DNA of 63,997 bases, counting the filler, from Jimgerdemannia flammicorona (Eukaryota): NCBI GenBank assembly GCA_003990765.1. It is 3 parts of 3 records of this genome, joined end to end, with 100 filler letters (N's around TTAATTAATTAA, not from the genome) between each part and the next. Parts side by side here need not be neighbours in the genome. Positions count along the whole stretch, not along the records: positions 21,671 to 43,227 come from RBNJ01001427.1; 2 more parts are not named here. The stretch is one strand, 5' to 3'. Below the pieces are notes generated by a model. The model ran no database searches, was not told the origin of the DNA, and worked only from the letters and a program-made list of their open reading frames with translations. Positions 5,639-43,327 of the stretch are shown piece after piece. Every line of letters begins with the position of its first letter. Positions within the stretch are counted from its first letter, which is position 1. The position numbers and the translations under genes are program-made.

Positions 5639-7139
5639 TATAATGGTGACCACAGAATGATAACATCAGCATAGTAGATAGTCTTTTCTTACAAGCTATC
5701 AGATTAGAGCACAAGAAGATCTATGGTATATAAGATGAGCAGTGATGACTAACTGTAAGTCATTGTGACTATAGTATGGGTATCTTGAGAAATATAAAAG
5801 AAGGATCAAGGAACTACAGTAATAGCAATCAACAAGACCCACTAATCTCTAAATAGCTCAAAGACTTACTACAAATGAAATGTCTACTGCTTACCAAATG
5901 TCAAGGTCAAGGAACTACCAAGGTACCTCAGTTGAAGAAAGGATATTCCAAGACATCAGAAGAGCTATAAGGACCTGTACAAGAAGGACTCCTAGTGTTA
6001 ACCTGAGTACTGATAACTCTTATCATTATATCCTCTACTGCTATAAAATGGGAACAAGAATCACTATTACTACTGAATATCTCTAAATGTGGCAGGAGTA
6101 TGAAATAAGAAACCTTCTCTGCCAAGAGTTCCCACAGGCCAGTTCCCAGGAGTTATAAGATACTACTCTTATGAATATATATAAAGCAAGGATAGCTAAG
6201 AAGATTCATCAGATCTTCAGGCATGTACTATGGTCAATCTCCAACTTGGAGTATATTAGAGTCTCAGACTTCAGAGACCTGTCAGCCTGTCATATCAATG
6301 CACTAGAAGCCAGGATGGCTACAGAAGCTCAGTTCACTATCACCCTCAATAGTGATAAAGTAGAAGACTTCGGGCATCCCATCTTCCAGGACAACCTAGA
6401 CCAATTTCTACAAGGATTGATCTCAGTATTCCAAGGTCCAAGCATCTAGGTTAGATCTCTCCAAGACCCCATATTTTGTTCCCTATTTCATAGAAGAGAA
6501 CCTCATAGACTGGAGAGCTCCAGACCTCTTTGTTCCCACTGCTGCCAAACATGATGACATCATTAGCAATGACATCATCCTGCTGACCTATGTAATAATA
6601 ACAAAATGGATGAAATATTCATAGATCTTATCTCCTTTGAAGACATCCTGACCTTAGATGAGGATGAAGCTCCTATAATTCTAAATATTCTGCTCTAAAG
6701 TTCCTTAGTTATACTGAATTATTCCAGCACTATTTTTCTGTATTACTGAAATTATATCAGCATCCTAAACCTATGCAATCATCTGTACTGACCCTGGAAC
6801 TTGGCAGTTTTCCATATCCTGGCATTTTATTTTAGTTATTGGAATTTATATTTAGCTTTATATCTTAGCAACCATTGAATTATATTTTGTATAAATACCC
6901 CTCTTATTTCCTCTGAAATAAAGTTAGTTCCTCTAAGTACAATATAAACAATTCCTTACAAGCAATCTAAAGAGATATGTAACAAGATAGTTTAAAGATA
7001 TGTAAGAAGTTTGAGGACTATAAGATCTTGGGAAGGCACTCCAATAAGAACTTACTTGTAACAAACTTGAGTTAGTCTAAGAGATACACCTTGAAGAGAA
7101 TCTGACATATTTGAAGAACTCAGCAACTACTATATGACA
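5639..7139 (+). repeat. Family A 5' LTR (~1.5 kb)
   Basis: Starts tataatggtgac (mutated TGTAAC...) and ends ...tgaca; aligns with 12824-14317 and 23015-24550. Confidence 0.9.
5880..6698 (+). pseudogene. Disrupted copy of the family A LTR-encoded ORF
   Basis: ORF-track pieces 5880-6086 and 6171-6449 match the intact 272-aa ORF at 23255-24073; same 819-bp span. Confidence 0.88.
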
Positions 7140-7142
7140 ACT

Positions 7143-7160
7143 TGGTGCCCATTGGCTGGT
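7143..7160 (+). other. Primer-binding site (tRNA identity not determined)
   Basis: TGGTGCCC... three bases after the LTR end; complementary to a tRNA CCA 3' end. Confidence 0.65.
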
Positions 7161-7199
7161 GATTCAAGACAAATTCCTCACTTTCAAGCTGAAAAATAA

Positions 7200-8224
7200 A
7201 CAACTACCACAATAACTACTGACTACAAGAGTCACCCCTGCAAGAATTTAAGATATATCCCCCTATATTCTATAAATATACTACTAAAGAGTCAATCCTG
7301 ACCTTCATTAAAGACTTTGAACAATTCACTGCTGTACAAGTCCTTAGTGTAGATGTACAATTGGCTCTTCTATCTGTCAACCTCAGAGGACCTGCCAGAA
7401 ATAAGTTCAATATAGTCACTATTGCTGATGCTAATGCAGCCAAACTTGCCAACATGAAGACCTTTCTCAGAACAATATACTATACTGAAGAGATCAAGCA
7501 AGCTCTCAAGGACAAACCCAATACTATCCCCCAGAGACTCAGTAAAGATCCCAACTCATTCTATACCTGAATATGTCACTAGATTATCTTGGCTGACTAT
7601 AATAATGCCCTCAAGGAACAAATAGCAGATTCAACCTTCCTCAAAGGAGTTCACCCTGAAATTGTCCTAGCAATCTGGTCTACCTTAGCTACACTGACCC
7701 TTGAACAGAAAGTGGTCTTTGTACAGAGATATTAGACTGCTAGACACCCTGCCAAACACTCACTAGAGAAAATAACTATCATCAAGATAGAGCCATCAAA
7801 GTCAACCAGTATCATACTCACTACAGTTGTAAACAGGCAACTATCCCCATCCACCCCCAAGGCAGCCAAAGCTGACTCAGTGGAGGAACTCACCAAGCAG
7901 TTTACTGAGATAACTATATACCGTAGTGATATTATTAGAGAAGTCCAAAGTGCCAACAGGAGACCAGTACAGAGATTTGCAGCTGCTACAGAAGAATATA
8001 ATATCATATACTTCAGATATGGAGAAGAAGACCACTATGCAAAGAATTGTATAACTAAAACAAGATATAAAGCCCAACTAAGTAATACTAGCAGAACTAG
8101 AAAAAAACCCAATACAGTAGTCATTGAGGATATTGGTGATACTGATGATGAAGAATACTATGAGGAGCTTGAATTCTACCCTACTACTGAAGATACTAGA
8201 ATCTGGTCCAAGCCCTATGACTAG
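7200..8224 (+). pseudogene. gag: Family A gag with degenerate CCHC zinc knuckle
   Basis: LRGPARNKF segment and IYFRYGEEDHYAKNC (mutated Cx2Cx4Hx4C) at ~8005-8050. Start approximate. Confidence 0.75.
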
Positions 8225-8639
8225 AAGAGCAACAGCAAGTCAGTTGGAAGACCAAAGAAGACCCCAGCTGTCACTATCTAAAGTAAGACCCAAACTGAGG
8301 AGATTGATCAAGACATAGAGTTAGATGAAGCTGTTCACCAAATCATTGAAGGCACTACTTCAGTCTCAAAAAAAAGCAAAAGCAAGAAGGAATAGAAGCT
8401 GTATAAGACCAAGATCCACTAGTATGATATCTATAAGGACCTCAAGAAATAGAAGATCAATGCTACTTTTGGACAGCTAGCCAAAGTCCCTGCCTTCAGA
8501 CAGTAGTTAAGAGTAGGACTTGTAACTACTGTCAAGAATTAAGTGTACAAGATTGTAGAAGCTTACAATATACAGAAAGAATCTGAAAACTCAAGCAAAG
8601 AATCTAAAGACTAGCACAAGATATCAGCCTATACTCTAT

Positions 8640-9000
8640 ATCAGATGAAATATTATATCTTTAATGCCATCATTGATACCAGTGCTGGAAGATATCTTAT
8701 GAGCAAGAAGACAATTGACCACCTAGGCTGGGATATTGAAGAGTCCACCAAGATGGTCTATGTCATAACAAATAGTATACAAGCTATCTCTCTTGGCAAA
8801 ATCTGAGAAGTCTCAATCAAGATAGAATGAGCTACCATCTCAGTAGATGTAATTGTTATAAGTGCCATCAACTATGACATCCTCATTGGTAACCAATGGC
8901 TTCACAAGGCCAAGGTCATCATTGATATCAATGCTCAGAAGATGCAGATCAACTATAGAGGAAGAAAGGTATGAATTTTTATCAATGTCCACAAAGGAGT
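8640..9000 (+). pseudogene. Family A aspartic protease
   Basis: AIIDTSAG (DTG motif with a G>A change) at ~8667-8690 and DILIGNQWL at ~8876-8902. Confidence 0.8.
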
Positions 9001-9340
9001 TCTATCAGACATAGAGAAAGGAGATGAAGAGGATATAGAAGTCTTCATGTACTTGATAAATAAGAACAAGAACAAGATACCTAAGCTCACAGATGAGCAG
9101 TGGTATAACAAGATCATCAATAGCTATACCCCTCAAGGAAGATGCCCTCATAGTACTAGGATATACTACTCTGAACACCTGAATAACTGTCAGCCCTGTT
9201 TCAGTGAAGTTAAGAAAATCTGCTAACAGAAACATGAGTAAGAAGTTACTGAAGCAAAAAGGAAAGTCAAAGAAGATGACCAGCCTCTGGAGCTGTAAGC
9301 TGATAGTGATGATGAGGAGGAATAAGAACCAGACATCACT

Positions 9341-9748
9341 CTCAAGGTTAAGAAGTTTCACCCTGAAGCCAAGATCTCAGAATACAAGCCTGAAGGAGCT
9401 ATAGGAATAGACCTTGCCAGCATTCAAAATACTACTCTCAAACCACAGACCATCACTCTACTTGGCACTGGAATTGGAGTCAAGCTGCCAGAGAACCATG
9501 CTGGAATTATCAAGACCAGGAGCAGTCTGGCCAAAAGTGAAATCTCAGTTGAAGGAGGAGTAATTGACCCTGATTACACTGGCAAGATCTTCCTCATAGT
9601 CAGGAATCACAACCCCACCACCCCATTCAAAGTCAAGAAGTATGACAGGATTGACCAGATGCTGATCCACGAAATCAAGAAGTCCAAGATCACTGAAGCC
9701 ATCAAACTCATCAAGACCAAGAGAGGAGAACAAGGCTTTGGATCTACT
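9341..9748 (+). pseudogene. dut: dUTPase domain between protease and RT of family A (frame still open)
   Basis: All five trimeric dUTPase motifs in order: AIGIDL, RSSLA, GVIDPDYTG, DRIDQM, RGEQGFGST. Confidence 0.92.
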
Positions 9749-9939
9749 GAAAGAGGAGTCTATGCTACTACTAAGATTACCAAACTTGAGTACTAGAATG
9801 ATAGGGATCAGAACAAGCACACATATACCATTGGAGAAAACTTTCCCCTGGAAGAACAACTTCTCAAAATTCTGCATCAGAATGAAGGAGTACTTGCTAC
9901 AGACTTCAGAGATATCTATAATCGAGAACTCAAGTATTA

Positions 9940-12515
9940 CCATGAAGTTGATACTGGTAATATAAAGCCCATCTACCAGAAGGCCAGACCTATACCACCT
10001 GCCTATAGAGAATAGCTGTGAGCAGAACTTAAGGAAATGGAAGAAGCTGGAATCATCAAGCAAGTTATCAGTCCCTGGGCTTCATTCATTGTTCTCACTC
10101 CAAAGAAAGGAAGAAAGCCTGGAGAGTTTGCACCAAGACTCAGCATTGACTACAGGAAGCTCAATACAATCACCAAGAAGGATAGACAGCCCTTGCCAAA
10201 TATTCAAGAAATCCTTACCACTCTTAGAAGTGAAGCCAAATACTATACCACCTTGGATCTGTTCTCAGAATTCCATCAGATTGGTCTCACTTAAGATACC
10301 AGTGAGAAATCAGCCTTCATCACACCTGATGCCATCTATATCTATCTATAAATAACATTTGGAATATATAATGCCCTAGTAAGTTTTCAGCAAATGATGA
10401 ACAAAGTCTTCAATAATGAGATTGGAAAATGACTCTTTGTCTATATTGATAATGTGATCATCTTCAGCAATACTGTATAGAAATATATCAATTATATATA
10501 GCTAGCCCTCAAGAAGCTCAAGGAGCATGACCTCTACATCAAGCCCAAGAAATACAAGTTTGTAGCTCAGGAAATTTCCTACCAAGGACACATCATCAAT
10601 CAGACCAGAATCCATACAGACTCAATGAAAATTGAAGCTGTTATAGCCTACCTGAGATCCAGAACAACTACAGAAGTCCATGCCTTCCTTGGACTGGCCT
10701 CCTACTATAGAAGATTCATCAAAGGATACTCTAACATTGTAGCACCTATCTATGAGCTACTGAAGAAGGAGACCAAATTCGAATAGACTAAGGAATACCA
10801 AGAAATCTTCAATGAACTCAAGATTAGGTTGACCCAAGCACCTATACTCAAAAGACCAGATTGGAACCTAGAGTTCATTCTGCAGACAGATGCAAGTACT
10901 ATAGAACTTGGAGCAGTCCTAGCTCAGAAGAAAGATAGACATGAATATGTCATCTCCTATATAAGCCAAGATATCTATGGAGCAGAACAGAACTACAAGT
11001 CATATAAGCTTAAATACTTAGCAGTAGTTTGGATAGTAGACAAGTTCTACTACTATCTAACTAGAAAACACTTCACTATTCAAACAGACCATTCCACTCT
11101 TGCCTGGCTATTCCACACTCTGAACCCTAAAGGAATATATGCCTGATAGATCTACAGACTGTAAGAGTATGATAGTACTATCAAGCACCACTTAGGGAAA
11201 ACCAACACCAATTCTGATACACTCTCAAGGATACTCCAAAACACCTCTATCAAGGCTATTCAACATGAATAAGGAGTTATATTATAGATTAATCAGCTAT
11301 CTTGGACAACAGAAGATGCCCAACTATCTCGAACCCTGAATAATCACTATCATTAATCAGACTTGGAAACAGTTTGAACTAAACAATACTATACTCAGAA
11401 AAGGAAGAAATCTTGTAATACCCAAATATAAGAAGTATCAAGTAATGAAGGAAGTATATGAAAAAGGACACCTAGGAGGAACCAATATATATGATAAGGT
11501 AAGAAGAACTATATGGTGGCCCAAGATGGAAGAAGACCTGTGTCAATTTGTCAAAGAGTGTGACAAGTGCCAAAAATAGAAACAAGATCAATAAGACCAG
11601 GCACCTGGGTTATCAAGAATTGAGTATATCCCCTTCCACTATATTGCAATAGATATCATTGAGCCACTACCAGTAATACTATCAGAAAACTGCTATATTA
11701 TAGTTATTATAGACCTCTTTACCAAATGGATAGAAGCAGGAGCATTACAAGAAGCCAATGCCCTCTTTATAGCTGACTTCCTGCACCAAGAAATCATCTG
11801 CCACTACAAGACACTAAAGCAAATTACAACATACTGCAATATAGAATTTGTCAATAGGTTATATGAGATAATATATCAGAAAAACAAGATTCAGCACATC
11901 AAGACCACTGCATACCACTCTCAAGGAAATAGACAGATAGAGAGAACCAACAAGACCCTCAAGAACTTCTTGGTAAAGATCTCAGAGACATATGAGAATT
12001 GAGATAACTACCTCCCAACTACCCTCTCTGTCCTATGAGATATACAGTCACAGAGCACACACTTTACTCTAAGAGAACTGCTCTTTGGAGAAGAAGATTC
12101 TAATGGAACCTCAGCCACAAATCTAGACCTAACTTAGAGATAGGTTGATGCAGAAATCCAGAGGCTATACCAAATCAGAAAGAAGGCTGAAGATTACATT
12201 ATCAAGCACAAGTACTGATAAGGAAGAATGTGGAAAAGAATCACAAGACTCTAGAATCCATCCAAATTGGAGAAAAGGTTCTACTGTATCAAAATATGAT
12301 AGAAGCCTCATGGTTGCAAAAACTGGAACCCAAATGGGAAGAACCCTTCTATATGCAAGATATTAAGAGAACTACTTTCTGGCTTAGAAAAATCTCAGGG
12401 ACTATACTGCCTACTATGGTACACAGAAACAAACTTAAGAAGTACCATGAACCTATACAAGAGAAGTAAAATATAATGATTGCCCATGAGGTTCTAGTCT
12501 ACAAATTGTAACAGC
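9940..12515 (+). pseudogene. pol: Family A RT, RNase H and integrase (disrupted)
   Basis: SPWASFIV, IDYRKLN, LDLFSEFHQI, VYIDN (YIDD mutated), LQTDAS, QTDH, then integrase matching 21700-22700. Confidence 0.92.
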
Positions 12516-12823
12516 ATTTCCCATAACTAGCAGGCTATCTGTCTGGACCATTCTCTAAGAGATACAGTACCAGCAACTACTCATCTATAAGACTTTCAAA
12601 ACCAGAGAAGTTTGAACCATCAACTGATTTATCAAGATCAGAATCAGGCCCTTGCTCTATATAAAGAGAGTGACTCTTCACTATTATGCCAAAATATATA
12701 GAGAAGATACCAGCTCATAAATATCACTTTTCCACCCCTTGCCAGAGATATGGGATCAGCAAATTTTTCAGGACTGGACTAATGAATAAGGATATTTAAG
12801 AAGATCCTTATTCAGGAGGAAGA

Positions 12824-14317
12824 TGTAACAGTGACTCCAGAATGATAACATCAGTACAGGAGACAACCTTTTCTTACAAGCCACTAGATCAGAGCACAAG
12901 AAGATCATATGACATATAAGATAAGTAATGATAACTAACTGTGAGTCATTGTGACCACAGTATGAGTATCTTGAGAATTATAAAAGAAGGATCAAGGAAC
13001 TGCAGTAACAGCAACCAATAAGACCCACCAATCTCTAAATAGCTCAAAGACTTACTATAAATGAAATACCTACTGCTCACTAAACCTCAAGGTCAAGGAA
13101 CCACCAAAACACCTCAGTTGAAGAAAGGATGTTCTAAGACATCAGAAGAGCTATGAGGATCTGTACAAAAAGAACTCCTAGTATCAACCTGGGTACTGAT
13201 GACCCTTATCATTATATTCTCTACTGCTATAAAATGGGAATAAGGATCACCATTGCTACCAAATACCTCCAAATGTGGCAGGAGTATAAAATAAGAAACC
13301 TCCTCTACCAAGAGTTTCCACAGGCCAGCCCTCAGAAGTTACAAGATACTACTCTCATGGATATACATAAAGCAAGAACAGCTAAGAAGATTCATCAGAT
13401 CTTCAGGCATATACCATAGTCAATCCCCAACTTAGAGTATATTAGAGTCTCAGACTTCAGAGACCTTTCAGCCCACCATATCAATGCACTAGAAGCCAGG
13501 GTGGCTACAGAAGCCCAGTCCACTATCACCCTCAATAGTGATGAAGTAGAAGACTTCTGGCATCCCATCCTCCAGAACAATCCAGACCAATTTCTACAAG
13601 AATTGATCTCAGTATTCTAAGACCCAAGTATCCAGATTAGACCTCCCCAAGACCTCACATTTGTCCCCTATTTCATGGAAGAGAACCTTATAGACTGGAG
13701 AGCTCCAGACCTCCTTATTCCTGCTGCTGCTAAATGTGATGACATTATTGACAATGACATCATCCTGTATGACCTATACAATAATAATGAAACAGATGAA
13801 ACATTTACAGATCTCATCTCCTTTGAAGACATCCTGACCTCAGATGAGAATGAAGCCTCTATGATCCTGAACATTTTGCTCTAAAGTTCCTTGGTTATAC
13901 TGAATTATTTCAGCACCATTTTTCTGTATCATCAAAATTATACTAGTATCTTGAACCTGTGCAACCATCTGTGCTAACTCTGGAACTTGGCAGTTTTCCA
14001 TATCCTGGTATTTTATTTCAGTTATTGGAATTTATATTTAGCTTTATATCTTACCAACTATTGAATTATATTTTGTATAAATACCCCTCTTATTTCCTCT
14101 GAAATAAAGTTAGTTCCTCTCAGTACAATACATACAATTTCTTGCAAGTAATCTAAAGAGATAACAAGATAGTTTAAAGATAAGAAGTTTGAGGACTATA
14201 AGACCTTAGGAAGGTACTCCAATAAGAACTTGCTTATAACAAACTTGAGTTAGTCTAAGAGATACATCTTGAAGAGAATCTGACATATTTGAAGGACTCA
14301 GTGATCACTATATGACA
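12824..14317 (+). repeat. Family A 3' LTR containing the disrupted LTR ORF (13066-13884)
   Basis: TGTAAC immediately after the PPT; ends tgaca; ORF pieces 13153-13419 and 13675-13884. Confidence 0.92.
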
Positions 14318-17600: not shown

Positions 17601-19666
17601 GATGGTAAATTCTCTAACAATAAGAGATCCTCTATGAAAAGTAAGCAAAAGTACTCCAACATTTGCTGAGAAACTCATTCTAATTTAGGAAATTATTAGG
17701 ATATACTAGCAAGCTCTAGATAGTAAAAAGGACTATATGAGCTATATTGAAGTATATGAGTATATATATATTATGATATCTTCTAGTGAGCCAAGGATAT
17801 ATGATGAGGCTATACAATGTTCTAATAATAAGAAATGGCAATATATAATAGATGAGAAATACAATTCACTCATCAAAATAGTATATAGAAATCTTGTATC
17901 TCTTTCATCAAACCATCAAGCAATCAGGTCCAAGTGAGTGTATAGAATAAAGTGCAATGCTGATAGTAATGTAGAGTAGTATAAAGCTCATTTAGTTGCT
18001 AAGAGTTATTTACAAGATTATGACATAGACTACAACAAGACATTTTTATCTGTATTCAAGCTTACTTTGCTTAGAATACTCCTTGCAATCAGTGTACTAT
18101 ATAATCTCAAAATTTATCAAATGAATGTAAAGATAGTATTCCTAAATAGTAATATAGATACTAAACTATATATCTATTAACTGCAAGGATACAAAAATAG
18201 TAAGCTCATATACAGATTATATAAGAGATATATGGCATCAGACAAGCAGTATAGCTATAGAATAAAAGAATTAATAAACATCTCCTTGACAATAGATTCA
18301 TACATTGTAAAGTATATATCTAGTATTATAATAATGATGGTATAGTATTTATTAGTATATAGTTTGATAACATTATTATTATTGCCAGTAAGAATAGACT
18401 TAATAGAGTTAAAGAAACTCAATACTGAGAATTCAAGATGACCAACATGGATAATACATACTTCTTTTTGGAGATATTGATTATATATAATAGAAATATA
18501 CATATCATACATCTCTCACAAGAAACTTATATCAAATCCATCCTCAAATGCTTTAATATGAGTGAATATAAGCCTGTTAACACCCTGATAGAGACTTTTG
18601 TAAAGTTAAGAAAGTCTGATAATATGTCTAAGAATAACAACAATATGCCTATCAAGAGTACTACTACTAATATTCCCTATTGACAAGCAATTGGTTCCCT
18701 TATATATCTAATACTTAGAATGAAGCCTGATATATCCTATATTATCAATAAAATAATACAGTGTTACTTATACTATGATAATATGCATTAGATGGTAATT
18801 AAGAGGATTTTCTAATACTTAAAGAGATCAGTATACTATATGCTTACATTAAGTAGAGATATTAGATTGAGTGGGAGCAATGGCTAGAGTAATGACAAGA
18901 GCAATAGTAAGAGCAATAGCAAGAGCAACAAGATTTGGCAATCTGGTACATATGATACCAATTGGGTCAGAGACTTAGATGACTATCAGTCTATAATTAA
19001 ATACCTCTTTTACATCAGCAAAAATAACAAAGAGTCTATTGTCTTATGGCAAATTCATAAACAAATCTCTATTATAATCTCATTTATACAAGCTGAATAT
19101 TAGACATTATCATTAGTAATAAAGAAAGCTATTTGGCTCTATAAACTATTAAAAGAGCTCAGCTTTACTCAGAGGAACCCTACATTGATCAGATAAGACA
19201 ACCAATCTACAATAACACTTGCTAAAAATCTGATACATTATAGCAGAATGAAACATATTAATATATAGTATCATTTTGTATGAGAATGTATAGAAAACAA
19301 TACTATATATTTAGAATATATCTCCATAGAGTATATAATCACTGATTCACTTACAAAAGCTCTTTCAAAGCTGAAGTTTGAATAATATATTAAAGAAATA
19401 GATCTTATAAGCTATATACCAGCATTTGGTTGATAATGAGATATTTTTCAGGCTCTTAAAAGCCTCTTACACTATATATATATTAGTTACATCTCTCATC
19501 TATAAGAGAATTACATACTTTACATTCTTTATCTATGGATAGATATTTCAGATATTTTAGATATATTTTGAAATACTTTTTAACCTATAAAAATTCCTTA
19601 AATATAGGATTTTATATAGTAAATTGGGTTATATACAGTTCAAGTTTTGTATGTATTATATATTAC

Positions 19667-19704
<38 letters not shown>

Positions 19705-19880
19705 TAGTATATATTATATTCTTTTTTTATAGATATACATCTTATTGAGTGGGAGTATTGGGATGGCAACTCCATATATCAATATATGATTATACCATTC
19801 TATCAGATTTATATCATTCATCAGTAAAGCATGAAATATATGATCTCTGCAACTTTAATAAAATGCCTCTTTTTACAATA
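14647..19880 (+). mobile_element. Ty1/Copia LTR retrotransposon, heavily degenerate
   Basis: 125-bp LTRs at 14647-14771 and 19756-19880; TSD GTTAT (14642-14646, 19881-19885); PPT gagtgggag. Motifs *LIDSGA (PR), LDLIHTDIC (INT), RT (YKAHLVAKSY) and RNase H (QAEY, HSRMKHINI) in Copia order PR-INT-RT-RH. Confidence 0.9.
14774..14787 (+). other. Copia PBS complementary to the anticodon arm of initiator tRNA-Met
   Basis: gattatgagccctg versus GGTTATGAGCCCTG (one G>A change), the half-tRNA-iMet PBS type of Drosophila copia and yeast Ty5. Confidence 0.8.
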
Positions 19881-20736
19881 GTTATAAATATAATTATAAT
19901 TAGATCTTTCTCTTACTTCTGTCAGAGTTTCTCTTATAGATTCAGATCTCATATCCTTAATAGAGGAGAGATAGCTAAACTTGAATTAAGTCTGATAGTT
20001 CTTATAGTTGTTTTCTTTCTTAAGATATTAGACTATAGTATAATGTACTGGCTTAATAAAAGTAAATTATAAGAGTGAGTAACTATATAAATTAGCTTTA
20101 GCTCTTAGTTATTTTATTAAAAAGTATCAATTGATTTCTAAAGTATATATTCTTCTTATTTATATAATATGGACAGTTTTAGCTAATTTCTCTTAATAGA
20201 TATAGATTCTGTATAACATAGTAATTTACTTATAATATAGTTAAGTTCTTAAGATTTTGTATAGTAAGTAGACCAAAATGATAGATAATTTAAGTTATTT
20301 AGACTTAATCTGGTAATTAGACCATAATTAGTAGACTTTTTTATATCAGAAAGTAGACTAGAGTAGAAAAGAAATAAAGCTTACAATTTCTTAACAGTAA
20401 CTCATTAGCAGATATATCTCTTAGTATTATAATTTTTTCTTGATTAAGATACTTTTGCTAGATATTTCTCCTAAGTATACTAGTTAATTAAATTTCACTT
20501 TTCTTTAATATTTTTTACTGAGGTTAATTTACTTAAATCTCTGAGGTATTTTATATAAATATGGTTAATATCTGATTACTATCTGAGTAATTATTGAATA
20601 TATAGTAGAACTAATTTAGAGATAGTATGATTATCTATTTTCTTGGAAGATGAGTGTTCTTTATAGACTTAGAATGAGTATTCTATTTGAGTCAATATCT
20701 AGCTATAATATCTAAATGAAAAACAAATTGAACTAT

Positions 20737-21570
20737 AGGTGGGGGGTGGTGGATGGAGTACACTGGATAGGTCTGTACTAGCAAGGAAATGAGGGAGAGG
20801 TGCTGTGGGGTCCAGCTATGTGGCAGTGGGACAGACTCCTTCTGGGGGGTATACTGCTTGTTGAGTTTGATATTAGTGATGGGGTGGAGGGTCAGCAGGG
20901 ACTTGGCCAGAATCTTTGGCTGAGCAGTTAACAGATGGTGGAGATTGGTGAGGAGTGGGACTGAGCAAGAGTCTGGTCATGGAGTGCTGAGGTGTAGAGG
21001 TAGCTTCCTCTCAAGTTCTGAGTAGTATGGTGGTGGATACTGAGAAGGAATGTTATGTTAAATTTCCATACTGGGTATCTAGTAGATAGTGGTCAATTTG
21101 ATTATAAGGAGTGTTATAATACAGAGCAAGTTGGGGGATTTGTATAAACACCAGAACATTGGCTAGGGGAGTGTGAAATTTTTGGGGACTTTTGGATAGT
21201 AGTAGGAGACCAGCTGGGTGTAGTGAGGAGGTCAGATAGAGAGAGAGGTCACTGGGAGGATTTGAAATCTCATTTAGTGAGAGGTGTCAGCAATAGTTGG
21301 CTCACTGTAGAGTGGGTTTTAGTAGTGTAGGTAGGGCTGGCTAGATATTGGCTTTTTGTTTTTGAGAAGAGATGACAGATGGGTGTCCAGGAGAAGTTGT
21401 TAAGATGGGAGGGGTTGTTGGGTAATTTGCTGACTGGGTGGTGGGTTGGTTGGGGCCCCCAGGGTGGGCAACATCACTGACTGGTAGAAGGGATCTGTGA
21501 ACAGAGTGGTGGGCAAGTGGAGCTGGTGTCAGATAAAGTGGTCTTTCATTACGAGGGAGTAGGGGGGGGG
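20737..21570 (+). mobile_element. LINE 3' fragment (same family as 54811-60564), cut by the assembly gap
   Basis: Aligns with 61130-61950 and with the reverse complement of 54950-55760. Confidence 0.82.
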
Positions 21571-21670
21571 NNNNNNNNNNNNNNNNNNNNNNNNNNNNNN
21601 NNNNNNNNNNNNNNTTAATTAATTAANNNNNNNNNNNNNNNNNNNNNNNNNNNNNNNNNNNNNNNNNNNN
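21571..21670. other. Artificial contig spacer (44 N + TTAATTAATTAA + 44 N)
   Basis: Six-frame-stop linker flanked by Ns; exactly 100 bp. Confidence 0.97.
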
Positions 21671-21699
21671 CCAACACATACGACAAGGCAAGAAGAACC

Positions 21700-22700
21700 A
21701 TGTGGTGGCCCAAGATGGAAGAAGACCTGCGCCAATTTGTCAAAGGGTGTGACAAGTGCCAAAAACAGAAACAAGATCAGCAAGACCAGGCACCCAGGTC
21801 ATCAAGAATTGAGCCTATCTCCTTCCACTACATCGCAATGGATATCATTGGACCACTACCAGTAACACTATCAGGAAACCGCTATATTATAGTTATTGTA
21901 GACCTCTTCACCAAATGGATAGAGGCAGGAGCATTACAAGAAGCCAATGCCCTCTCTATAGCTGACTTCCTGCACCAAGAAATCATCTGCCGCTACAAGA
22001 CACCAAAGCAAATCACAACAGACCGCGGAACGGAATTTGTCAATGGATTCCACGAGATAATATATCAGAAATACAAGATCCAGCACATCAAGACCACCGC
22101 GTACCACCCTCAAGGAAATGGACAGACAGAGAGAACCAACAAGACCCTCAAGAACATCCTAGCAAAGATCTCAGAGACATATGAGAATTGGGATAACTAT
22201 CTCCCAACCGCCCTCTCTGTCCTACGAGACATATGGTCACAGAGCACACATTTTACCCCAAGAGAGCTGCTCTTCGGAGAAGAAGATTCTGATGGAACCT
22301 CAGCCACAAATCTAGACCTAACTTGGAGATGGGTTGATGCAGAAATCCGGAGACTACACCAAATCAGGAAGAAGGCTGAAGATTACATCACCAAGTCACA
22401 AGCGCTGATAAGGAAGAATGCGGAAAAGAATCACAAGGCCCTAGAACCCATCCGAATTGGAGAAAAGGTTCTACTGTATCGAAATATGGTAGAAGCCTCA
22501 TGGTTGTGAAAACTGGAACCCAAATGGGAAGGACCCTTTTACGTGCAAGATATCAAGGGAACTACCTTCTGGCTTAGAAAAATCTCAGGGACTATACTGC
22601 CTACTACAGTACACAGGAACAGACTCAAGAAGTACCACGAACCTATACAAGAGAAGCAAAACGTAATGACTGCCTGTGAGGTTCTAGTCCGCGAATCGTA
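21700..22700 (+). pseudogene. Family A integrase (269-aa open stretch, one CGA>TGA stop at 22507, continues to stop at 22700)
   Basis: CDKC zinc-finger half, MDIIGPLP, TDRGTEF, YHPQGNGQTERTN (DDE core), then KWEGPF C-terminal domain. Confidence 0.93.
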
Positions 22701-23254
22701 ACAGTATGTCCTGTGACCAGCAGGCTATCTGTCTGGACTATTCTCTAAGGGATATGGCACTGGCAACTACTCATCCGTGAGACTTTCGCAGTCAGAGGAG
22801 TTCGAACCGTCAACTGATTGGTCAAGATCAGAATCAGGCCCTTGCTCTATATGAAGGGAGCGACCCTTCACTATCACGCCAAAATACAAAGGGAAGATGC
22901 TAGCCCATAAACACTAGTTTTCGACCCCTTGCCAGAGTTTATGGGATCAGCAAATTTTTCAGGACTGGACCAATGAATAAGGATGCTCAGGAAGATCCTT
23001 ATTCAGGAGGAAGATGTAACGGTGACCCCAGAATGATGATATCAGCACAGGAGACAGCCTTTCCTTACAAGCCACCAGATCAAAGCACAAGAAGATCATA
23101 TGGTATACGAGATGAGTAATGATGACCAACTGTGAGTCATTGTGACCACAGCACAAGCATCCTGAAGAATATAAAAAGGATCAAGGAACTGCAGTAGCAG
23201 TAATCAACAAGAACCACTAATCCCAAAATAGCTCAAAGACTTACCACAAACGAA

Positions 23255-24073
23255 ATGCCTGCCACCTGCCAAACCTCAAGATCAAGGAACCACCAAGGCA
23301 CCTTGGTTGAAGAAAGGATGTTCCAAGACATCAGAAGAGCCATGGAGATCCGCTCAAGAAGGACTCCTAGTGTCAACCTGGGTACTGCAGACCCCTATCA
23401 CTTCATCCTCTACTGCTGTGAAATGGAAACAAGGATCACCATCACCACCGAATGCCTCCAAATGTGGCAGGAGTGCGAAATAGGAAACCTCCTCTGCTGG
23501 GAGTTCCCACAGGCCAGCACCCAAGAGCTACAAGATGCCACTCTCATGGATATACATGAAACGAGGACAGCTAAGAAGATCCATCAGATCTTCAGGCATG
23601 CACCATGGTCGATTCCCAACTTGGAGTATGTTAGAGTCTCAGATTTCAGAGACCTGTCATCTCGCCGCATCAATGCACTAGAAGCCAGGGTAGCTACAGA
23701 AGCCCAGTCCACTATCACCCTCAACAGTGAAGAAGTAGAAGACTTCTGGCACCCCATCCTTCAGGACAACCCAGACCAATTCCTGCAAGGATTGATCTCA
23801 GTATTCCAAGGCCCAAGCATCCGAGTTAGATCCCCCCAAGACCCCACATTTGTCCCCTATTTTGTGGAAGAGAACCTCATAGATTGGAGAGCTCCAAATC
23901 TTGTCCCCGATTTCTCCGCTGAACGTGATGACGTCATCGGCGATGACGTCATCCCGCGTGACATCGACATACGCGAAGCACGCGAAAACGACGAATTCGC
24001 GGATCTCATCTCCTTCAGTGATGATGATGATGATGATGATGAAGCCCCCATGGTCCTGAACTTTCTGCTCTAA
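23255..24073 (+). CDS. Intact 272-aa protein of unknown function encoded inside the family A LTR (U3)
   Basis: ATG-to-stop ORF wholly within LTR 23015-24550; TATAAAA at 23170; same length in two other LTR copies; acidic C-terminus. Confidence 0.8.
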   Translation: MPATCQTSRSRNHQGTLVEERMFQDIRRAMEIRSRRTPSVNLGTADPYHFILYCCEMETRITITTECLQMWQECEIGNLLCWEFPQASTQELQDATLMDIHETRTAKKIHQIFRHAPWSIPNLEYVRVSDFRDLSSRRINALEARVATEAQSTITLNSEEVEDFWHPILQDNPDQFLQGLISVFQGPSIRVRSPQDPTFVPYFVEENLIDWRAPNLVPDFSAERDDVIGDDVIPRDIDIREARENDEFADLISFSDDDDDDDEAPMVLNFLL

Positions 24074-24312
24074 GTTCTTTGTTACACTGGACAATGCCAG
24101 CACCGGTATTCTCATGTAACACCAGATAATGCCAGCACTGGTATTCTGAGGTGACGCAAAATTGTTCCAGCACTGGCATTTTGATGTGACACTGGATAAT
24201 GCCAGCATCCTGAACCTGTGCAACCAACAATACCAGCCCTGGAACTTAGTAGTTTTAGTTATTGAAATTTATATTTAGCTTTATATCTTAGCAACCATTG
24301 AATTATATTTTG

Positions 24313-24345
24313 TATAAATACCCCTCTTATTTCCTCTGAAATAAA
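24313..24345 (+). promoter_or_regulatory. Likely LTR core promoter (TATAAATA) and poly(A) signal (AATAAA)
   Basis: TATAAATA at 24313-24320 and AATAAA at 24340-24345, conserved in all three family A LTRs. Confidence 0.6.
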
Positions 24346-24550
24346 GTCAGTCTTCTCAGTGCAATACACACACTTCCTTGCAAGCAATCTAAGAGATAAC
24401 AAGACAGTTAAAGATAAGAAGTTTGAGGATTATAAGACCTTGGGAAGGCACTCCAATAAGAACTTGCTTATAACAACTTGAGTTAGTCTAAGAGATATAC
24501 CTTGAAGAGAATCTGGCGTATTTGAAGGACTCAGTGACCACTACGTGACA

Positions 24551-26395
24551 ATACATATATACTCAAATGGTCTTAGCTTTGAGAGAGCATCTCCTTGGTA
24601 CACAAGCTCTTTACTATCAGAAAACATCTATTTAACTAATACTTATTGCAGGAATAACTAGATAATCTCAGACCATATTGCTCAAATTAGGAAAGTCTAT
24701 TTGACATCTCTATAAATTTAAAATATAAAGAATTTTAGAGCTAAAAACTTGAGATATTTAATAAAAATAATTATGAAAATTCTTACCTTCCATCAATCTA
24801 ATATACATATTAATACTCTTTAATAAGACTACTTGATCAGTAGATAAATACATTGTAAGCTTATCTATTGAAGATTCTCTTTTTCTTTTTTTACTATAAA
24901 GATACTATATAATAGAATCATTTACATAGTTATCTAAACTATAGTTAGAATTTGGTAGTTTTTCTAATATATATTAATAATTAATTACTCTACTTTTTTT
25001 AATAAATTCTTTTTTCCAGCCTTGATCTTTATAATATTAAAGTTTTAATTATAGATTTAAAATTAATTAGATATTCAAATTATACTTCACTTATCAGTAC
25101 TAATAGAAAATACAGAAGTATCTATTTTTAAATAATATTTTTTAAGTTTTTTCAAAGCTACTTCAATAGCTTCCTTTTGTCTTAAGAGAAATATATATAT
25201 TTTTGTTCTCCAATAAGTCTAGTAGATCTTTAAGTTGATCAATCAAAAAGATTGTATACTAGAATTGCAGAATATATCATTGAAAACTTTTGCTAAACAA
25301 CTTTTTTTATATATTTATTAAAATACTAAAGTAAAATAAAAAGTAAAAGTAGTTGGCCACATATTCTGAAGGGTAGAATAGTAGTTAGAATAGTGGTTAA
25401 AATTAGTTCAACCCCACTAACCACTTGTGGAAAGACAATCTACCTTCTATCAGTTGAGCACCTCTATACTCTCTAATAGGATTATATGATTACTGATAAG
25501 GTAAATAGTAAGTTTGTCTATTGATAGCAGTTTTTCTACTAATGACTTTCTTTTTCTCTTTTTGCTGAAATAAATATGTAATAGAAAAGATTCTTTAGTA
25601 TATTTATCTGGACTTTAGCTAGAATCTTATAGTAGTATATAGTTTTTCCAGTATATTTCAATTATGACTTACTTGGCTTCCTTAATATAGTACTGCTCCC
25701 AGTCCTGATCTTTATAGTATTATAGCTTTAAGTATAGATCTAATACTGTTTTGAGAAAGAGAGTGTGTTTTGCTGAGATTTTCTTTTTTTAAAGAAGTAA
25801 CTGCTATGCTGACATGCCTATACTAATTGAGTATATAGTAGTATCTGTTTTGGAGTAGTATTTTCTAAGCTTGCTCAGAGCAATCTCTATGATATCTCTC
25901 TGATCTAAACTAAATCAGAAATTATTACTACTCTCTAGCCTGTTCTTGAGCCTATCCTCTGGTTAATTAATTAAAATATTATATATCAATATTATAAAGC
26001 TTATTGTTAAAGTAGTTTGTTTAACTATATTCTTCATATAATTATTAAAATACTGATAGTTAAATTATTATATTACTGTATAGAGGCAGACAAAATAAAT
26101 ATAGAGTCAAAGCAATTATCACTTACTTTCAAAACTCTGACAATATTTCTTGGTATATCTCACTTACTTTTATCTATAGCCTCATTCTATATTTCCTTAT
26201 TAAAAACAATTATGAAATCTTGGTTTTTTTTTTTTATTTTTAAAAAAATTCCATTTTTAAATTAATTAACAATCCTCAGTCATCTAAAACAATTTGCTTC
26301 AGCCAATCAAAAAAGAGCACATACTATAGCAAACTCTAGCATATACTAGATCATTATAAATATTAAGTTCTAATATATATAGATATCTAATATTA
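24551..26395 (-). pseudogene. hAT transposase remnant, C-terminal part (interrupted by element B)
   Basis: Minus strand gives ILD*WK, a GTAAG intron donor, then FPNLSNMV*DYLVIPAIS (hAT dimerization domain), and AIEVALKKLKKYY. The middle portion may contain other decayed DNA. Confidence 0.7.
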
Positions 26396-28457
26396 TGTAA
26401 GCGCACAACCCCCAAACCACCGAAATTACATGTCACCCTCTGAATAAGCCACTGAAATCACATGCAATCTCTGAACAAATCTGGAAATCACCTGCTTGAC
26501 CACAAAGCTGAGTCAAACCGAAGTCACAGTGCACAAAGCTAAGTCAATATGAAGTCACAGAACACAAGATTCACACAAACAGAATCTTACCAATCAGGAC
26601 CAAAGGCATATATACCAAGCACTGAGATGCATAAATCAGAGAACCAAAACAAACAACAACCATAACTTCCAAACACACAAACATGACCACCAAGATCTAT
26701 ACCCATATCTATGCTGACATTTGGAATGCCATTATCAACTGAGCCACACCCCCTCTGCCCCTCATGAATATCTATAGTCTAGCACCCCTCTACTTTATGG
26801 AAGCCCAATAAAATGCTCTGAACATGTTTAGCGAGGCCCACCGAATTGGACAAATCTCAAGCTACTACCAGATCAGCTGCCTCCTGGAAGACATGATCGA
26901 ACACAACCATGATACAGACATTACCCAGATGTCTCAACACCAGAAGCTCATCACCCGCAAACATCAAGAACTCTTCTATGAGTATAGCACTGTTATTCCC
27001 TGCCTCTGAGTTACCACAGCGGAAATGGTTGCTACCCTGTCCTATGGCCAAATCGACGACATGATATAAGAACTCAACCACAAGTACCTTTAGTATGTCA
27101 AAACCACAGACAGAACCTTCCCACACCCCAATGATCATATTCTACAAATGCCCCAAGTTGGATATACCATGAAGGACATCTATGATATAATCCACTTTGA
27201 TGAAGACAAAGCAGAAGACAATGATCCCTCTGACACTGACATGACCTCTAGCCAAGGATCTCTGCCAACCCTGATCACACTACCAACCTTGCCAATGAAC
27301 TTACAACAATTTATAACAGTATACAAGACTTATTGGGACAATGACCACTGGCACGAATACCAATCCGCGTTCACCCCTGACTACTTCAACTATAATGAAG
27401 AGATCGGAGAACACAACCTATACCTCCAGACAACCCTCAAGATCAAACCAACCACTCCACCACCTGAGTATAAGCAATATGAACCACAGCCACCAGCTTA
27501 CTACAACCCCATGACTCATAGTACTGTAACTTACAGGAGGTATGCAGACAGCGAATCTGATGAAAGTGAAGATGATGCACCCCTCCTTCGCCCACCAACA
27601 CCTTACCCAGCATATGAGACAGATGATGTCATCTTGTGGGACAGAGATGAAGTTCCAATGTATTATTACCTTAGTGAACAAGGAGAAGTAATCCGCGAAC
27701 CACTTTTCCTAGACAACTACTTCATTAGAGATGATGCAATTGATGGTGATGTCATCAAGGACTACCCAGACAGTGCCTAAACTATAAATAGCCTAGCAGT
27801 CATAGTATAGTTAGATTAGCCTTATACGACATGACTGTGAACTGACTCAGCAGTCAGACAATCTCTTGACATATCAGATCACACTTGTACTACATGACTG
27901 TATTCTAACTCAGCAAGGCACTTAGTGCTACATCCATATCTAACATAGTCCAGATAGCCCCTCACTAGTATAAATACCCCCTCCCCCAGACCTCAGAATC
28001 TCAGACCTGAACAATCCGAACACAACTTCTGAGCACTTCCCCACAATATCCCTTCATACAACTACTCCTAATATAGCAATATCATGAATAGCAAATAAAC
28101 CTATTCAATAACCCACAAACCACTCTTAAGTAAATCCACTCCCCGTTAGGTCCCACTCCTAACCCTGTCACGAAATTTCCTAATTGGGTATTATCTGCAG
28201 CGATATACCAATTCAACTAAGCTGGTCTTAGTTTCTTGAACTTCCTGAAACATGGAAAATCCTGAATATCCAGAACTAGTCCAAAAAAGGACTTTGGTTG
28301 AGACATCAACCTGAACTTGAAATCAATAAGCATAGAGGATGTACTCCATACGAAATTGATCTTGACCATAAGAAAACAGTCTTCCAGAATATCCAGAACC
28401 TCCAGAAAACCTTTCCAGAACTATGTAACAGTTACCTTAAAAAGCAACCCTCTTACA
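26396..28457 (+). repeat. Element B 5' LTR (2062 bp)
   Basis: Direct repeat of 34975-37036; differences are mostly transitions. Confidence 0.95.
26683..27780 (+). pseudogene. Element B LTR-encoded ORF (365 aa when stops are reverted)
   Basis: ATG at 26683 is in frame with track ORFs 26824 and 27148; no frameshifts. Stops are complemented by the other LTR copy (35262-36359) or are CGA>TGA type. Confidence 0.82.
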
Positions 28458-28460
28458 ACT

Positions 28461-28470
28461 TGGTAGCAGT
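28461..28470 (+). other. PBS, initiator tRNA-Met 3'-end type
   Basis: TGGTAGCAG three bases after the LTR end. Confidence 0.75.
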
Positions 28471-29420
28471 AGTTTACAATCCAATTCCGCTTCAAGACAC
28501 TTCCTCATCCTGCTACAAACCCTTCTGAGAATTCCTACAAGTTGATATAAAGCCCAACCTCTGAACTGGAATCTATCCTGAACCATCTGACAATCTGGAG
28601 AGAATTGAACCTAACGTACAAGGACAATTTGACCTCCACACCTGCAACAAGTGGGACAAACTTCATTCAAAGAAAGAAGTACTCCAGTTAAACCAGCAAA
28701 TAGATGAAACCCTATTCACTGAACTCCTTGCACTATACCCAGCAAGTCATAACAAAGAAGGTCTTATTGAAGCCTTCTTTACTCTTCTCAACAAGAGTTT
28801 TGTCAGCTCCACAAATCTGAGTGACCTAGGACAACCAGCAGTAGTCTTTCTAGCCTTAGTTCCTCATGAAGCCCAAGCCTCTGTAGCCAAGTGGCTCAAC
28901 TCTACCAACTTTCACCACACCAGGACCAAGGCCTGCCTTATACTACCGATTCCAGAACAGCAAGGCCCACTATATCCTTAAAGAAGAAGTAAGAGAAACC
29001 CTTCATCAACTACCTGACCCTGAACCTGAAGCAGGCCCTGCTACAGCCCTACCTGAATCTGAAACCAATACCGAACCTGAACTTGACTTTGAATTAAGTC
29101 CATCTGAAATCAGATATACAACTGATTCCATCTACTTTGATGCTGAGCAAACCCAATTACACAAGGACCAAACTAAAGAGGAGGAGGAGTATCTTGGTGA
29201 ATTCAATCCCGGATACACCACTGAAGGAGAAGCACCTCCATTAGGACAGAATACACCTACACAGCAACAAACAGCTATCTATCAAGCCCTCACCCCAGAC
29301 CCACAACTACTACTCCAGCAACTTACACAGACCCAAAGAACCCCATCACACTCTGCACCAGTACCTCAAGTAGTACTAGTAACACCACTACCAGCAGTCC
29401 AACCGCCTCCAGTAAACAAC

Positions 29421-32400: not shown

Positions 32401-34552
32401 ATCTGTAATCAAAGATTGGCCCAGACTCAAGAAGCTGAAAGACCTCCAGTCATTCCTGAGATTAGCAAACTATTACAGGTGATTTGTTGCCAACTTTGCT
32501 AAAATTACTACTGCCCTCATCCAAATGACCAAGCACAGCAAGAAACAAGAACAACCCTGAACCATAAAACAAGAGAAAGACTTCAACAATCTTGTAACTT
32601 GGGGACCCAAGCAAGATACAGCTTTTCAAGCACTGAAAGATGCCCTGATAACCACTCCAGTACTTCAAGCGGCAAATCCTACCCTACCATATGAAGTTAC
32701 TACTGATGCCTCTGACCTAGCTCTTGGAGCAGTACTCATGCAAGAAGGACACCCTGTGGCCTATCACTCCCACAAGTTCAATAATGCTGAAATTAACTAT
32801 GTAACCCATGAGAAGGAAATGCTAGCCATCGTAGACACTCTGATTAAATAGTGACCATACTTAGAAGGAGTACACTTCACTATATTGACTGACTACAAGT
32901 CATTAGTCAATATCAAGACACAGGCTACCCTTTCTCGAAAGCAAGCCAGATGGATGAAAGTCCTCACCAACTTCAACTACGAAATCCAGTACTGCCCTGG
33001 CAAGGAAAATATTATTGCCAATGTAATCTCCAGACCACTAATCAAAGAAGTTATTCAAACTCTCACCTTGGTTACAAACTCCATCATGGAACAAATTATC
33101 ACAGCATGTACTGATGATAAGAAAGCTCAAGCACTTCAAGAAATCCTGAACAGTGATGATGCCGACAAGTATACACAGTATCATCAATATCAACTGAAGG
33201 ACAATACTATCTACTACAAAGATAGACTGTATGTCCCAAACAACTGAGACCTCCGAAGGACTATCCTATTCAAATGTCATGATGCCCCTACAGCTGGACA
33301 TTTAGGATTCGACAAATGCTATGAAGTTATCTCCCGAAACTTCTATTGGCCCTGCATGACAGATCAGCTCAAAACCTACGTCACTTCTTGTGATGCCTGC
33401 CAATGAAATAAGTCCTCAACACTAGCAAAACCTGGCTTACTTCACCCTATTCCAGTACCATCTGCGAATTGGGAACAAATCTCGATGGACTTTATTGTAC
33501 AACTACCCTGAACCAAGAACAGGAAAGATGCAATTGTTGTCTTTGTAGATTACCTCAGCAAACAAGCCCACTTTGTGCCTACCACCACTACTGCAACAGC
33601 ACCGGATATAGCTACACTCTTGTTTGATAACATTTTCTGCTATCATGGTCTTCCTAAGATCATTGTTAGTGACCAAGACCCGAAATTCACCAGCCATTTT
33701 TGGAAAGCCCTTCATGCATACCTTGGAACAAAACTTGCACTATCCACAGCCTTTCACCCTGAAACTGATGGCCAAACTGAAAGAATGAACCAAACTCTGG
33801 AACAAATGCTAAGGAACTATGTTTCCTACAGACAAGATGACTGGCATGAACACCTTACTGCAGTTGAGTTTGCCTATAACAATAGCAAGCAAGTCTCTCT
33901 CAGAATGACCCCATTCTTTGCCAATACTGGACAAAACCCAAATACCCCTTTGACACTTATCCGAACTACTGAAGAACCCTCTACAGTCAAAGCTGTTGAA
34001 GAATTCCTGCTCTGAATGTGTAATCTAAGCCAGATCGCAATCGAGAATTTATCACGAGCTCAAGAACAACAGTTACAGTATATTAACCAACACCATTGAG
34101 AAGAAACCTTCGATATTGGAGAGAAAGTTCTACTAGACATCTGGGGATACCGAGTTGACAATCTCAAGCACAGACCATCTACAAAGCTGAACAGCAAGTT
34201 CATTGGACTATTTAAAGTCATTGCACAAGTCTCTCCTACCTCCTACAAATTGGTGCTACCAGATACCATTAAGATTCACCCAGTCTTTAATGTTCAACAC
34301 CTCAAGCGATACAATGAGAATGATGATGAACTATTCCCTAACCGAACCATGAAACCACCTACACCTGTCATTATTAATGACCAAGAAGAGTACGAAGTTG
34401 AACAAATCCTCAACAAATGTGGCCACAAGAACCACCCAGAGTACCTTGTCAAATGGAAAGGTTACCCAATCTATGATGCAACCTGAGAACCCAAGACCAA
34501 CCTCCAGAATGCTACTGACCTAGTTCAAGAATATGATTCCTTGAACAACTAA
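29421..34552 (+). pseudogene. Element B gag-pol polyprotein (disrupted)
   Basis: PTFNG gag motif, CFYCRKTGHIASTC knuckle (~30366), IDSGASGNFI protease, YIDD RT (32209), TDAS RNase H, FHPETDGQTER integrase, EYEVEQIL...YLVKWKGY chromodomain. Confidence 0.95.
30486..30893 (+). pseudogene. dut: dUTPase domain between gag zinc knuckle and protease of element B
   Basis: AAGYDL, HSSLA (RSS mutated), GVIDEDYTSEI, CIVQI and *GSKGFGSS, in frame with gag and PR. Confidence 0.92.
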
Positions 34553-43227: not shown

Positions 43228-43327
43228 NNNNNNNNNNNNNNNNNNNNNNNNNNNNNNNNNNNNNNNNNNNNTTAATTAATTAANNNNNNNNNNNNNNNNN
43301 NNNNNNNNNNNNNNNNNNNNNNNNNNN
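43228..43327. other. Artificial contig spacer (44 N + TTAATTAATTAA + 44 N)
   Basis: Same 100-bp linker as 21571-21670. Confidence 0.97.

Follow-up and report, generated by a model that had tools for sequence, protein, structure and literature searches.

Long terminal repeats (LTRs) are usually treated as non-coding control regions and are masked by annotation pipelines. Apart from the locus described here, the placement of a gene inside an LTR is known mainly from mouse mammary tumour virus (MMTV). Its sag gene is a complete open reading frame (ORF) of a few hundred codons within a U3 region of more than 1 kb and is duplicated in the provirus. MMTV also encodes a dUTPase and has a short R, with the poly(A) signal at the U3/R border; Sag itself is a type II membrane glycoprotein of a vertebrate retrovirus and is expressed via splicing. 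Here we analyse a 63,997-nt stretch of DNA from Jimgerdemannia flammicorona (assembly GCA_003990765.1; the window hereafter) in which an intact ORF of 272 codons (23255..24073, + strand) lies wholly within an LTR of a Ty3/gypsy retrotransposon. We argue that it is very probably a selected gene borne on the LTR and that its product represents a new protein family.

Other accessory genes provide further points of comparison. The nef gene of human immunodeficiency virus (HIV) and the foamy-virus bel/bet genes begin in the internal region and overlap U3, and Tas has an acidic C-terminal activation domain. Extra ORFs of retrotransposons, the env-like ORFs of Athila among them, are generally internal: they follow pol or precede gag without entering either LTR. 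That Sag is encoded by the MMTV LTR is documented (PMC3026287, PMC4667437). Additional ORFs have been described as ORF3 of the rotifer elements Juno, Vesta and TelKA and as the 'add. ORF' of fungal gypsy elements, none of which the relevant sections of the two sources place in the LTR (PMC5408684, PMC2864245). The same sections report a dUTPase between protease (PR) and reverse transcriptase (RT) in bdelloid rotifer and basidiomycete elements (PMC5408684, PMC2864245), and an N-terminal dUTPase in Pol of basidiomycete chromoviruses, with a placement that varies among fungal elements (PMC2864245). In a literature search of partial coverage that excluded figures, we found no report of a protein gene within a retrotransposon LTR, only MMTV sag and retroviral cases.

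Results

An intact ORF within an LTR

The ORF runs from ATG to TAA (272 codons plus TAA) inside LTR copy C (23015..24550, +), a 1536-bp repeat bounded by TGTAAC...GTGACA that forms the 3′ LTR of an incomplete element, element 2. It fills 53% of this LTR, with the ATG 240 nt in and the stop codon 477 nt from the LTR end. The LTR ends at 23015 and 24550 agree with the points at which metagenome contigs break off: contigs of runs X10 and X19 diverge from the stretch into unrelated flanks at 23014-23022 and 24550-24558. A polypurine tract, AGGAGGAAGA (23005..23014, +), abuts the LTR, and the letters of the primer-binding site (PBS) follow after 24551 in 8 contigs of metagenome run X1. Soil metagenome runs carry near-identical pieces of the LTR; 360 of the 2379 aligned contigs of run X1 are at least 99% alike. 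The segment 23886-24039, which encodes the acidic tail in copy C, had almost no metagenome cover at 85% likeness in any of the four runs (4/4), and we draw no inference from this.

A first-pass annotation of the window had described a complete ORF filling more than half of a 1.5-kb LTR, preceded by TATAAAA 85 bp upstream, and the same 819-bp span in three LTR copies. The ORF is as described, and TATAAAA is found at 23170-23176, its first base 85 nt before the ATG. The third statement holds in part: the span is kept in all three copies, and only copy C is intact, copies A and B being pseudogenes. The annotation had further supposed that the gene is present twice per element and would persist in solo LTRs, as is to be expected of an ORF that lies wholly inside the LTR.

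Homologues and purifying selection

Given the base composition of the LTR, chance would produce about 0.003 open frames of 272 codons in six frames of 64 kb, and the 289-codon open frame observed in the LTR was reached by none of 500 LTR shuffles (maximum 220). A word-indexed search of 5.8 billion proteins yielded 6 relatives at E<=0.01 among 363 candidates, all on short metagenome contigs and one of them full-length (271 aa, 76-78% identity). An HMMER profile search of all 1,835,955,588 representative proteins, performed without a length filter, returned 5 clusters of 138-342 aa and neither a longer or fused form nor a cellular relative. Members at 43%, 38% and 27% identity retain the motif order HQ.FRH.P, LE..VA.E..S.I, W.P.L.DN.D, F.GP.I, PYF, followed by an acidic tail. 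At the DNA level, a scan of JGI metagenome contigs gave one confirmed homologue from 380 pattern matches, the 1345-nt contig L001, which encodes an intact 323-aa protein with the same MPA... start and 63% identity over residues 1-212; among viral_contigs and genome_contigs, 0 of 62 and 0 of 15 pattern matches, respectively, were confirmed as further DNA copies.

Copy C and L001 share 66% nucleotide identity, with proportions of synonymous (pS) and non-synonymous (pN) differences of 0.66 and 0.21 over 214 well-aligned codons. The corresponding ratio of non-synonymous to synonymous substitution rates (dN/dS) is 0.16 (Nei-Gojobori; bootstrap 2.5-97.5%: 0.09-0.27; pN/pS 0.25-0.42), whereas in the two wrong frames, which contain 18 and 17 stops, this alignment yields 1.11 and 1.69. 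By codon position (1, 2 and 3), the differences number 63, 39 and 94. Judged by this substitution pattern, the comparison shows that purifying selection has acted across LTR lineages diverged to saturation at synonymous sites.

A chance open frame without coding function would account for the lack of any known domain and for the broken frames in two of the three window copies. We rejected this explanation on the dN/dS contrast in frame and out of frame (0.16 versus 1.1 and 1.7) and on the shuffle result, and the expectation of about 0.003 such frames and the intact relatives down to 27% identity argue against it as well; it is extremely improbable. The ORF at 23255-24073 is, with high confidence, better read as a selected, LTR-borne gene of a new family.

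Two antisense frames were observed at the same locus: one of 136 aa (23798-24208, -), which runs opposite the coding region of the acidic tail and the 35-bp repeats downstream of the gene, and a second at 23857-24051. Both are probably by-products of the GAT/GAC-rich coding strand of the tail, and L001 has similar ones.

The carrier element and the decay of its older LTR pair

Copies A (5639..7139, +) and B (12824..14317, +) are the 5′ and 3′ LTRs of element 1 and are 87.6% identical over 1505 nt. The ORF equivalent of copy A (5880-6698, 819 nt) is interrupted by three internal stops, and a +1/-1 indel pair puts about 6470-6585 out of frame; the profile match accordingly changes frame over 6448-6585. 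That of copy B (13066-13884, 819 nt) contains four internal stops, and ATA replaces ATG.

Between the two LTRs lies a decayed internal region (7140..12823, +) of the order gag-PR-dUTPase-RT-RNaseH-INT, the last being integrase. On the + strand we located gag (about 7223-8224), protease (about 8654-8950; RVP_2, E 1.3e-07, stops read as X), dUTPase (9326-9796; E 2.7e-26), a weak RT match (10022-10294; RVT_1, E 3.5e-05, 24.0 bits, under the Pfam cut-off of 29.6), RNase H (10787-11146; RT_RNaseH_2, E 5.1e-29) and integrase (11340-12469). The PBS, TGGTGCCCATTGG (7143..7155, +), lies 3 nt past copy A, and the same polypurine tract as in element 2 (12814-12823, +) abuts copy B. From the domain order, the TG...CA ends, the PBS and the polypurine tract, the repeats of this family (family A) are the LTRs of a dUTPase-bearing, chromodomain-less Ty3/gypsy (Metaviridae) retrotransposon. 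The flanks of element 1, TATAA and ATAGA, are heavily mutated and show no matching target-site duplication. The closest relatives of the integrase are metagenome proteins at 42-46% identity; among named ones, they are from a fern (34%) and a wasp (31%).

Of element 2, the internal 3′ end is present (21671..23004, +), with an intact integrase frame at 21700-22509 (rve and Integrase_H2C2), and begins at a joining spacer. The two spacers of the window (21571-21670 and 43228-43327) each consist of 44 N, TTAATTAATTAA (with stops in all six frames) and another 44 N. We read them as joints between three contigs; on this reading copy C is not physically linked to copies A and B, and its element is cut at 21671.

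With copy C as reference, C>T plus G>A changes make up 165 of the 263 differences to copy A and 155 of the 246 to copy B. The per-site decay rate falls from 0.59 at CpG to about 0.3 at CpA/TpG, about 0.2 at CpC/GpG and about 0.1 at CpT/ApG. One CpG is left in A and none in B, against 33 in C, and transitions account for 161 of the 172 differences between A and B. Because the C>T/G>A changes are one-directional and ranked CpG > CpA > CpC > CpT, the pattern is that of cytosine deamination on methylated DNA or of a process like repeat-induced point mutation (RIP).

Changes private to A or B were taken as post-insertion. Among those of the decay type, 32 of 87 are synonymous, compared with 150 of 411 possible, which is about the chance proportion. 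Changes that A and B share relative to C are slightly enriched in synonymous ones (32 of 65 decay-type changes; 18 of 49 others), a weak sign of constraint within the family.

Some of these data weigh against a selected gene. The selection test is a single DNA comparison, between copy C and L001, with a saturated dS of about 1.5, though pN/pS also lies well below 1. Two of the three window copies of the ORF are dead, and the within-family signal is weak: once C>T/G>A changes are excluded, those shared by A and B relative to C comprise 18 synonymous to 31 non-synonymous changes.

A second gypsy family with an LTR ORF

A complete element of a second family, family B, occupies 26396-37036, with LTRs at 26396-28457 and 34975-37036 (2062 bp, 92% identity), and a 5-bp TATTA target duplication; a PBS follows the first LTR, and the second is preceded by a polypurine tract. 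It is a chromovirus with gag, dUTPase (30438-30749, E 2.2e-19), protease, RT, integrase, SH3_Tf2-1 and Chromo. The dUTPase is placed differently in the two families: in family A it separates PR from RT, and in family B it precedes PR.

Each family B LTR holds a long frame (26683-27780 in the first LTR) that is broken by stops in both copies and leaves an intact 210-aa remnant at 27148-27780. A metagenome protein of 247 aa without a Pfam family (P0052) is 64% identical to this remnant and is open across two of the window stops; by this comparison the family B LTR ORF is conserved. In the LTR, TATATA is followed after 74 nt by the first usable ATG and the ORF, which has an acidic end; TATAAA comes about 190 nt past the stop and AATAAA 125 nt beyond that. 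Homology between the LTR proteins of families A and B was not detected by hhalign (probability 0.2%, or 3.7% with N-terminal read-through) or hmmsearch (9.2 bits).

Signals around the gene and its proposed placement in U3

The upstream TATA box of copy C (TATAAAA, 23170..23176, +) has counterparts in A (5793), in B (12979) and at position 4 of L001, where it stands 65 nt before the ATG. Copy C and L001 have GAATATAAAA in common at 65-85 nt before the ATG, with no intervening ATG and with A at position -3. Past the stop codon, a 35-bp unit is repeated 3.3 times (24093..24207, +; fewer units in A and B) and precedes a second TATA box, TATAAATA, followed by CCCCTC (24313..24320, +; also at 6890 in A, 14076 in B and 1218 in L001). 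The sole AATAAA of the LTR (24340..24345, +) lies 267 nt past the stop codon. Here too C and L001 have a stretch in common, TATAAATACCCCTC, with AATAAA 27 nt (C) or 26 nt (L001) after it; the other non-coding parts of the two LTRs barely align. Among copies A, B and C, 24269-24345 is 96-98% identical. From their position, the 35-bp repeats may be enhancer-like.

The AG that A, B and C have ahead of the ATG is missing in L001, for which reason we dropped the idea of a conserved splice acceptor there.

We lean towards an arrangement in which the gene sits in U3 (23015 to about 24344) as a nested unit of TATA box, gene and shared poly(A) signal. The TATAAAA at 23170 would start a transcript near 23200, on which the first ATG is that of the gene, and this transcript would stop at the AATAAA at 24340, giving an mRNA of about 1.15 kb. 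The second TATA box at 24313 would drive the genomic RNA from a start at or just past the AATAAA. R would then be very short and U5 about 180 nt; as in short-R retroviruses, only the 3′ end would carry a complete poly(A) signal. The AATAAA at 24340 would thus serve both the LTR gene and the element, and every LTR, whether 5′, 3′ or solo, would constitute a self-contained expression unit.

Alternatively, the TATAAAA at 23170 could be the sole promoter and R could extend from about 23200 to a poly(A) site near 24365, enclosing the gene. The gene would then form the first, cap-proximal cistron of the genomic RNA, with further expression from transcripts ending at the poly(A) site of the 5′ LTR, and TATAAATA would act as an upstream efficiency element of the poly(A) signal. 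The single AATAAA of the LTR, 27 nt after TATAAATA, has a spacing that fits such a two-part poly(A) signal, and the upstream TATA box is kept in all four sequences (A, B, C and L001). A first cistron of 272 codons with many internal ATGs, however, would block gag translation, and the 35-bp repeats stand just upstream of the second TATA box, the usual place of U3 enhancers. It is the 125-nt gap between TATAAA and AATAAA in family B, which fits the order promoter, R and signal, that makes us prefer U3, and the positions of the second TATA box and AATAAA in family A also favour U3 over R; a long R appears unlikely.

Placement in U3 with a promoter of its own has points against it as well: the identity at 24269-24345 may merely reflect A+T richness under the C>T regime; and TATAAATA...AATAAA could be a two-part polyadenylation signal instead of a promoter plus a signal.

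Protein features and candidate function

Residues 1-45 are basic (isoelectric point 11.5). Helices are predicted over residues 18-185 and two short strands over 200-212, and residues 216-272 are predicted to be disordered (AlphaFold2, 10-sequence alignment). This tail contains 21 aspartate or glutamate residues among 57, two DDVI motifs, an F-x-x-L-I motif (FADLI) among acidic residues and a conserved terminal LNFLL. The family has neither a zinc knuckle nor a conserved cysteine.

Among 10 family members, Pfam gave no match except ATG5_HBR in 2 of 10 (best E 0.088), which we take as chance, and PDB sequences gave 0 matches at E<=10. With the AlphaFold2 model as query, whose mean predicted local distance difference test (pLDDT) score is a poor 53.9, Foldseek found 0 PDB matches at E<=0.001, and VIA-align found nothing credible among 48,161 chains (best Z 4.6). 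In the ESM Atlas, the best score (0.89) went to a 'hypothetical protein' cluster and is below the meaningful level.

The first-pass annotation had recognised no gag, pol or env motif and no transmembrane segment, and had described a helical N-terminal part and an acidic C-terminus. Our results agree: no Pfam family matches the protein at E<=1, its highest Kyte-Doolittle 19-residue mean is 0.75, and the helices and acidic tail fall where expected. The annotation had also held the gene to be an accessory one, a view that a match to a known transposable-element protein would have contradicted; none surfaced in the Foldseek comparison with the PDB on the model of pLDDT 53.9, and the dN/dS of 0.16 against L001, together with the lack of gag, pol, env or Pfam matches, is in keeping with an accessory gene of its own.

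As a tentative proposal from composition and motifs, the product might be a transcriptional or anti-silencing regulator; the first-pass annotation had likewise named a transactivator or anti-silencing factor as the candidate. It would be soluble. Its basic N-terminus could serve in nuclear import or nucleic-acid binding and is followed by a conserved helical core (about residues 105-212) and an acidic, disordered tail with bulky hydrophobics (FADLI, LNFLL); this is the layout of a regulator with an acidic activation domain. Such a protein would act in trans in the nucleus on the LTRs of its own family, either activating the downstream promoter via the 35-bp repeats or holding off silencing. 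This proposal is weakened on three sides. The AlphaFold2 model is poor, and 'helical core' is a statement about secondary structure only; conservation is lowest in the acidic tail; and the resemblance of this tail to an acidic activation domain is a presumed one.

A structural or replication role would make the product a second capsid-like protein, a chaperone, or a targeting or import factor acting on the particle or the pre-integration complex and not on transcription. Its basic N-terminus and helical body would allow it to bind nucleic acid or particles, and a separate targeting factor is conceivable for family A, which is without a chromodomain. Yet the protein has no likeness to gag, nucleocapsid, env or any Pfam family, it lacks a zinc knuckle and conserved cysteines, and the chromodomain-bearing family B has an LTR ORF too; we regard such a role as quite improbable.

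The gene could also be a passenger, a host gene or gene fragment captured in the LTR; the selection would then reflect its history or a host-like function, and not a role in the life cycle of the element. Acquisition of extra ORFs by LTR retrotransposons is known (PMC5408684), and, with the host genome unsampled, the databases could lack a cellular parent. Against this, all 5 clusters are short (138-342 aa), with none fused to or within a larger cellular protein, and the diverged homologue in L001 is flanked on both sides by the same LTR signals. Since L001 sits among these signals at a synonymous divergence of about 1.5, the gene has evolved under constraint while inside LTRs, and capture of a passenger is about as improbable as a structural role. 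A regulator acting on the LTRs of its own family remains our preferred, if tentative, candidate.

Other features of the window

The region 14326-21570 is very A+T-rich and contains fragments resembling a decayed Ty1/copia element. A repeat at 20266-21362 recurs at 55306-55763 and 61127-62991. Self-comparison revealed diverged tandem or interleaved repeats at 50298-52714, with units 65-72% identical and a few hundred bases apart. Overlapping long frames on both strands occur at 44908-46787 (498, 322 and 241 aa) and at 58689-60471 (355 and 267 aa), none with a Pfam family; the latter lie in a repeat common to 90-1986. No tRNA or Rfam genes were found in the window.

Discussion

If the conserved gene of the family A LTR is indeed transcribed from its own promoter, solo LTRs would amount to dispersed, possibly expressed copies of a gene. 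Placement in the LTR doubles the gene dose and leaves the gene behind after recombination. The locus adds a new protein family without known relatives and a testable accessory function in a non-viral LTR element. That a second, unrelated gypsy family shows the same layout suggests a lineage-wide strategy over an accident. Should the protein control transcription or silencing of the LTR, it would be to retrotransposons what transactivators are to retroviruses.

A broader proposal, which we put forward as a long shot, is that self-promoted U3 genes form a recurrent module of several Ty3/gypsy lineages here; two families in the 64-kb window carry an LTR ORF, and the two ORFs may be very distant homologues. 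The module would disperse a trans-acting factor by means of LTRs, solo ones included. This factor would switch on the promoter of its own family or resist the methylation-linked C>T mutagenesis of the host, and would be the first LTR-borne regulator or counter-silencer encoded by a retrotransposon.

How does this arrangement compare with known systems? In their dUTPases, families A and B are like PosPlaTy3 of Postia placenta, the Phanerochaete elements and Tmt1 of Tuber: both placements have been described in fungi (PMC2864245). They are unlike these dUTPase-bearing elements in their LTR-borne gene, as none is mentioned for them in the relevant sections of that source (PMC2864245).

Unlike ORF3 and the additional ORF of fungal elements, the family A gene lies inside the LTR itself, and its span recurs in copy A, a 5′ LTR. 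As an additional gene in a Ty3/gypsy element, it is like the extra ORFs of Juno, Vesta and TelKA, of fungal elements and of Athila. Like nef, bel and Tas, it is an accessory, non-structural gene located 3′ in the element, with a product of about 270-300 aa that has an acidic tail, and positive feedback on the LTR is a possible common logic. In contrast to nef and bel, the gene starts 240 nt inside the LTR, so that it is found in the 5′ LTR and would be found in solo LTRs too. No sequence or fold likeness to transactivators of the Tas or Tax type was detected (fold model pLDDT 53.9); an acidic tail is present.

The closest parallel in position is MMTV sag, likewise an ORF wholly within an LTR of an element with a dUTPase and, in the arrangement that we favour, with a short R. 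The family A protein is unlike Sag in that it has no hydrophobic segment (maximum 19-residue Kyte-Doolittle mean 0.75) and no Pfam match, hence none to a Sag model. Its carrier, unlike MMTV, is an env-less Ty3/gypsy retrotransposon, and in place of splicing the gene apparently has a TATA box of its own.

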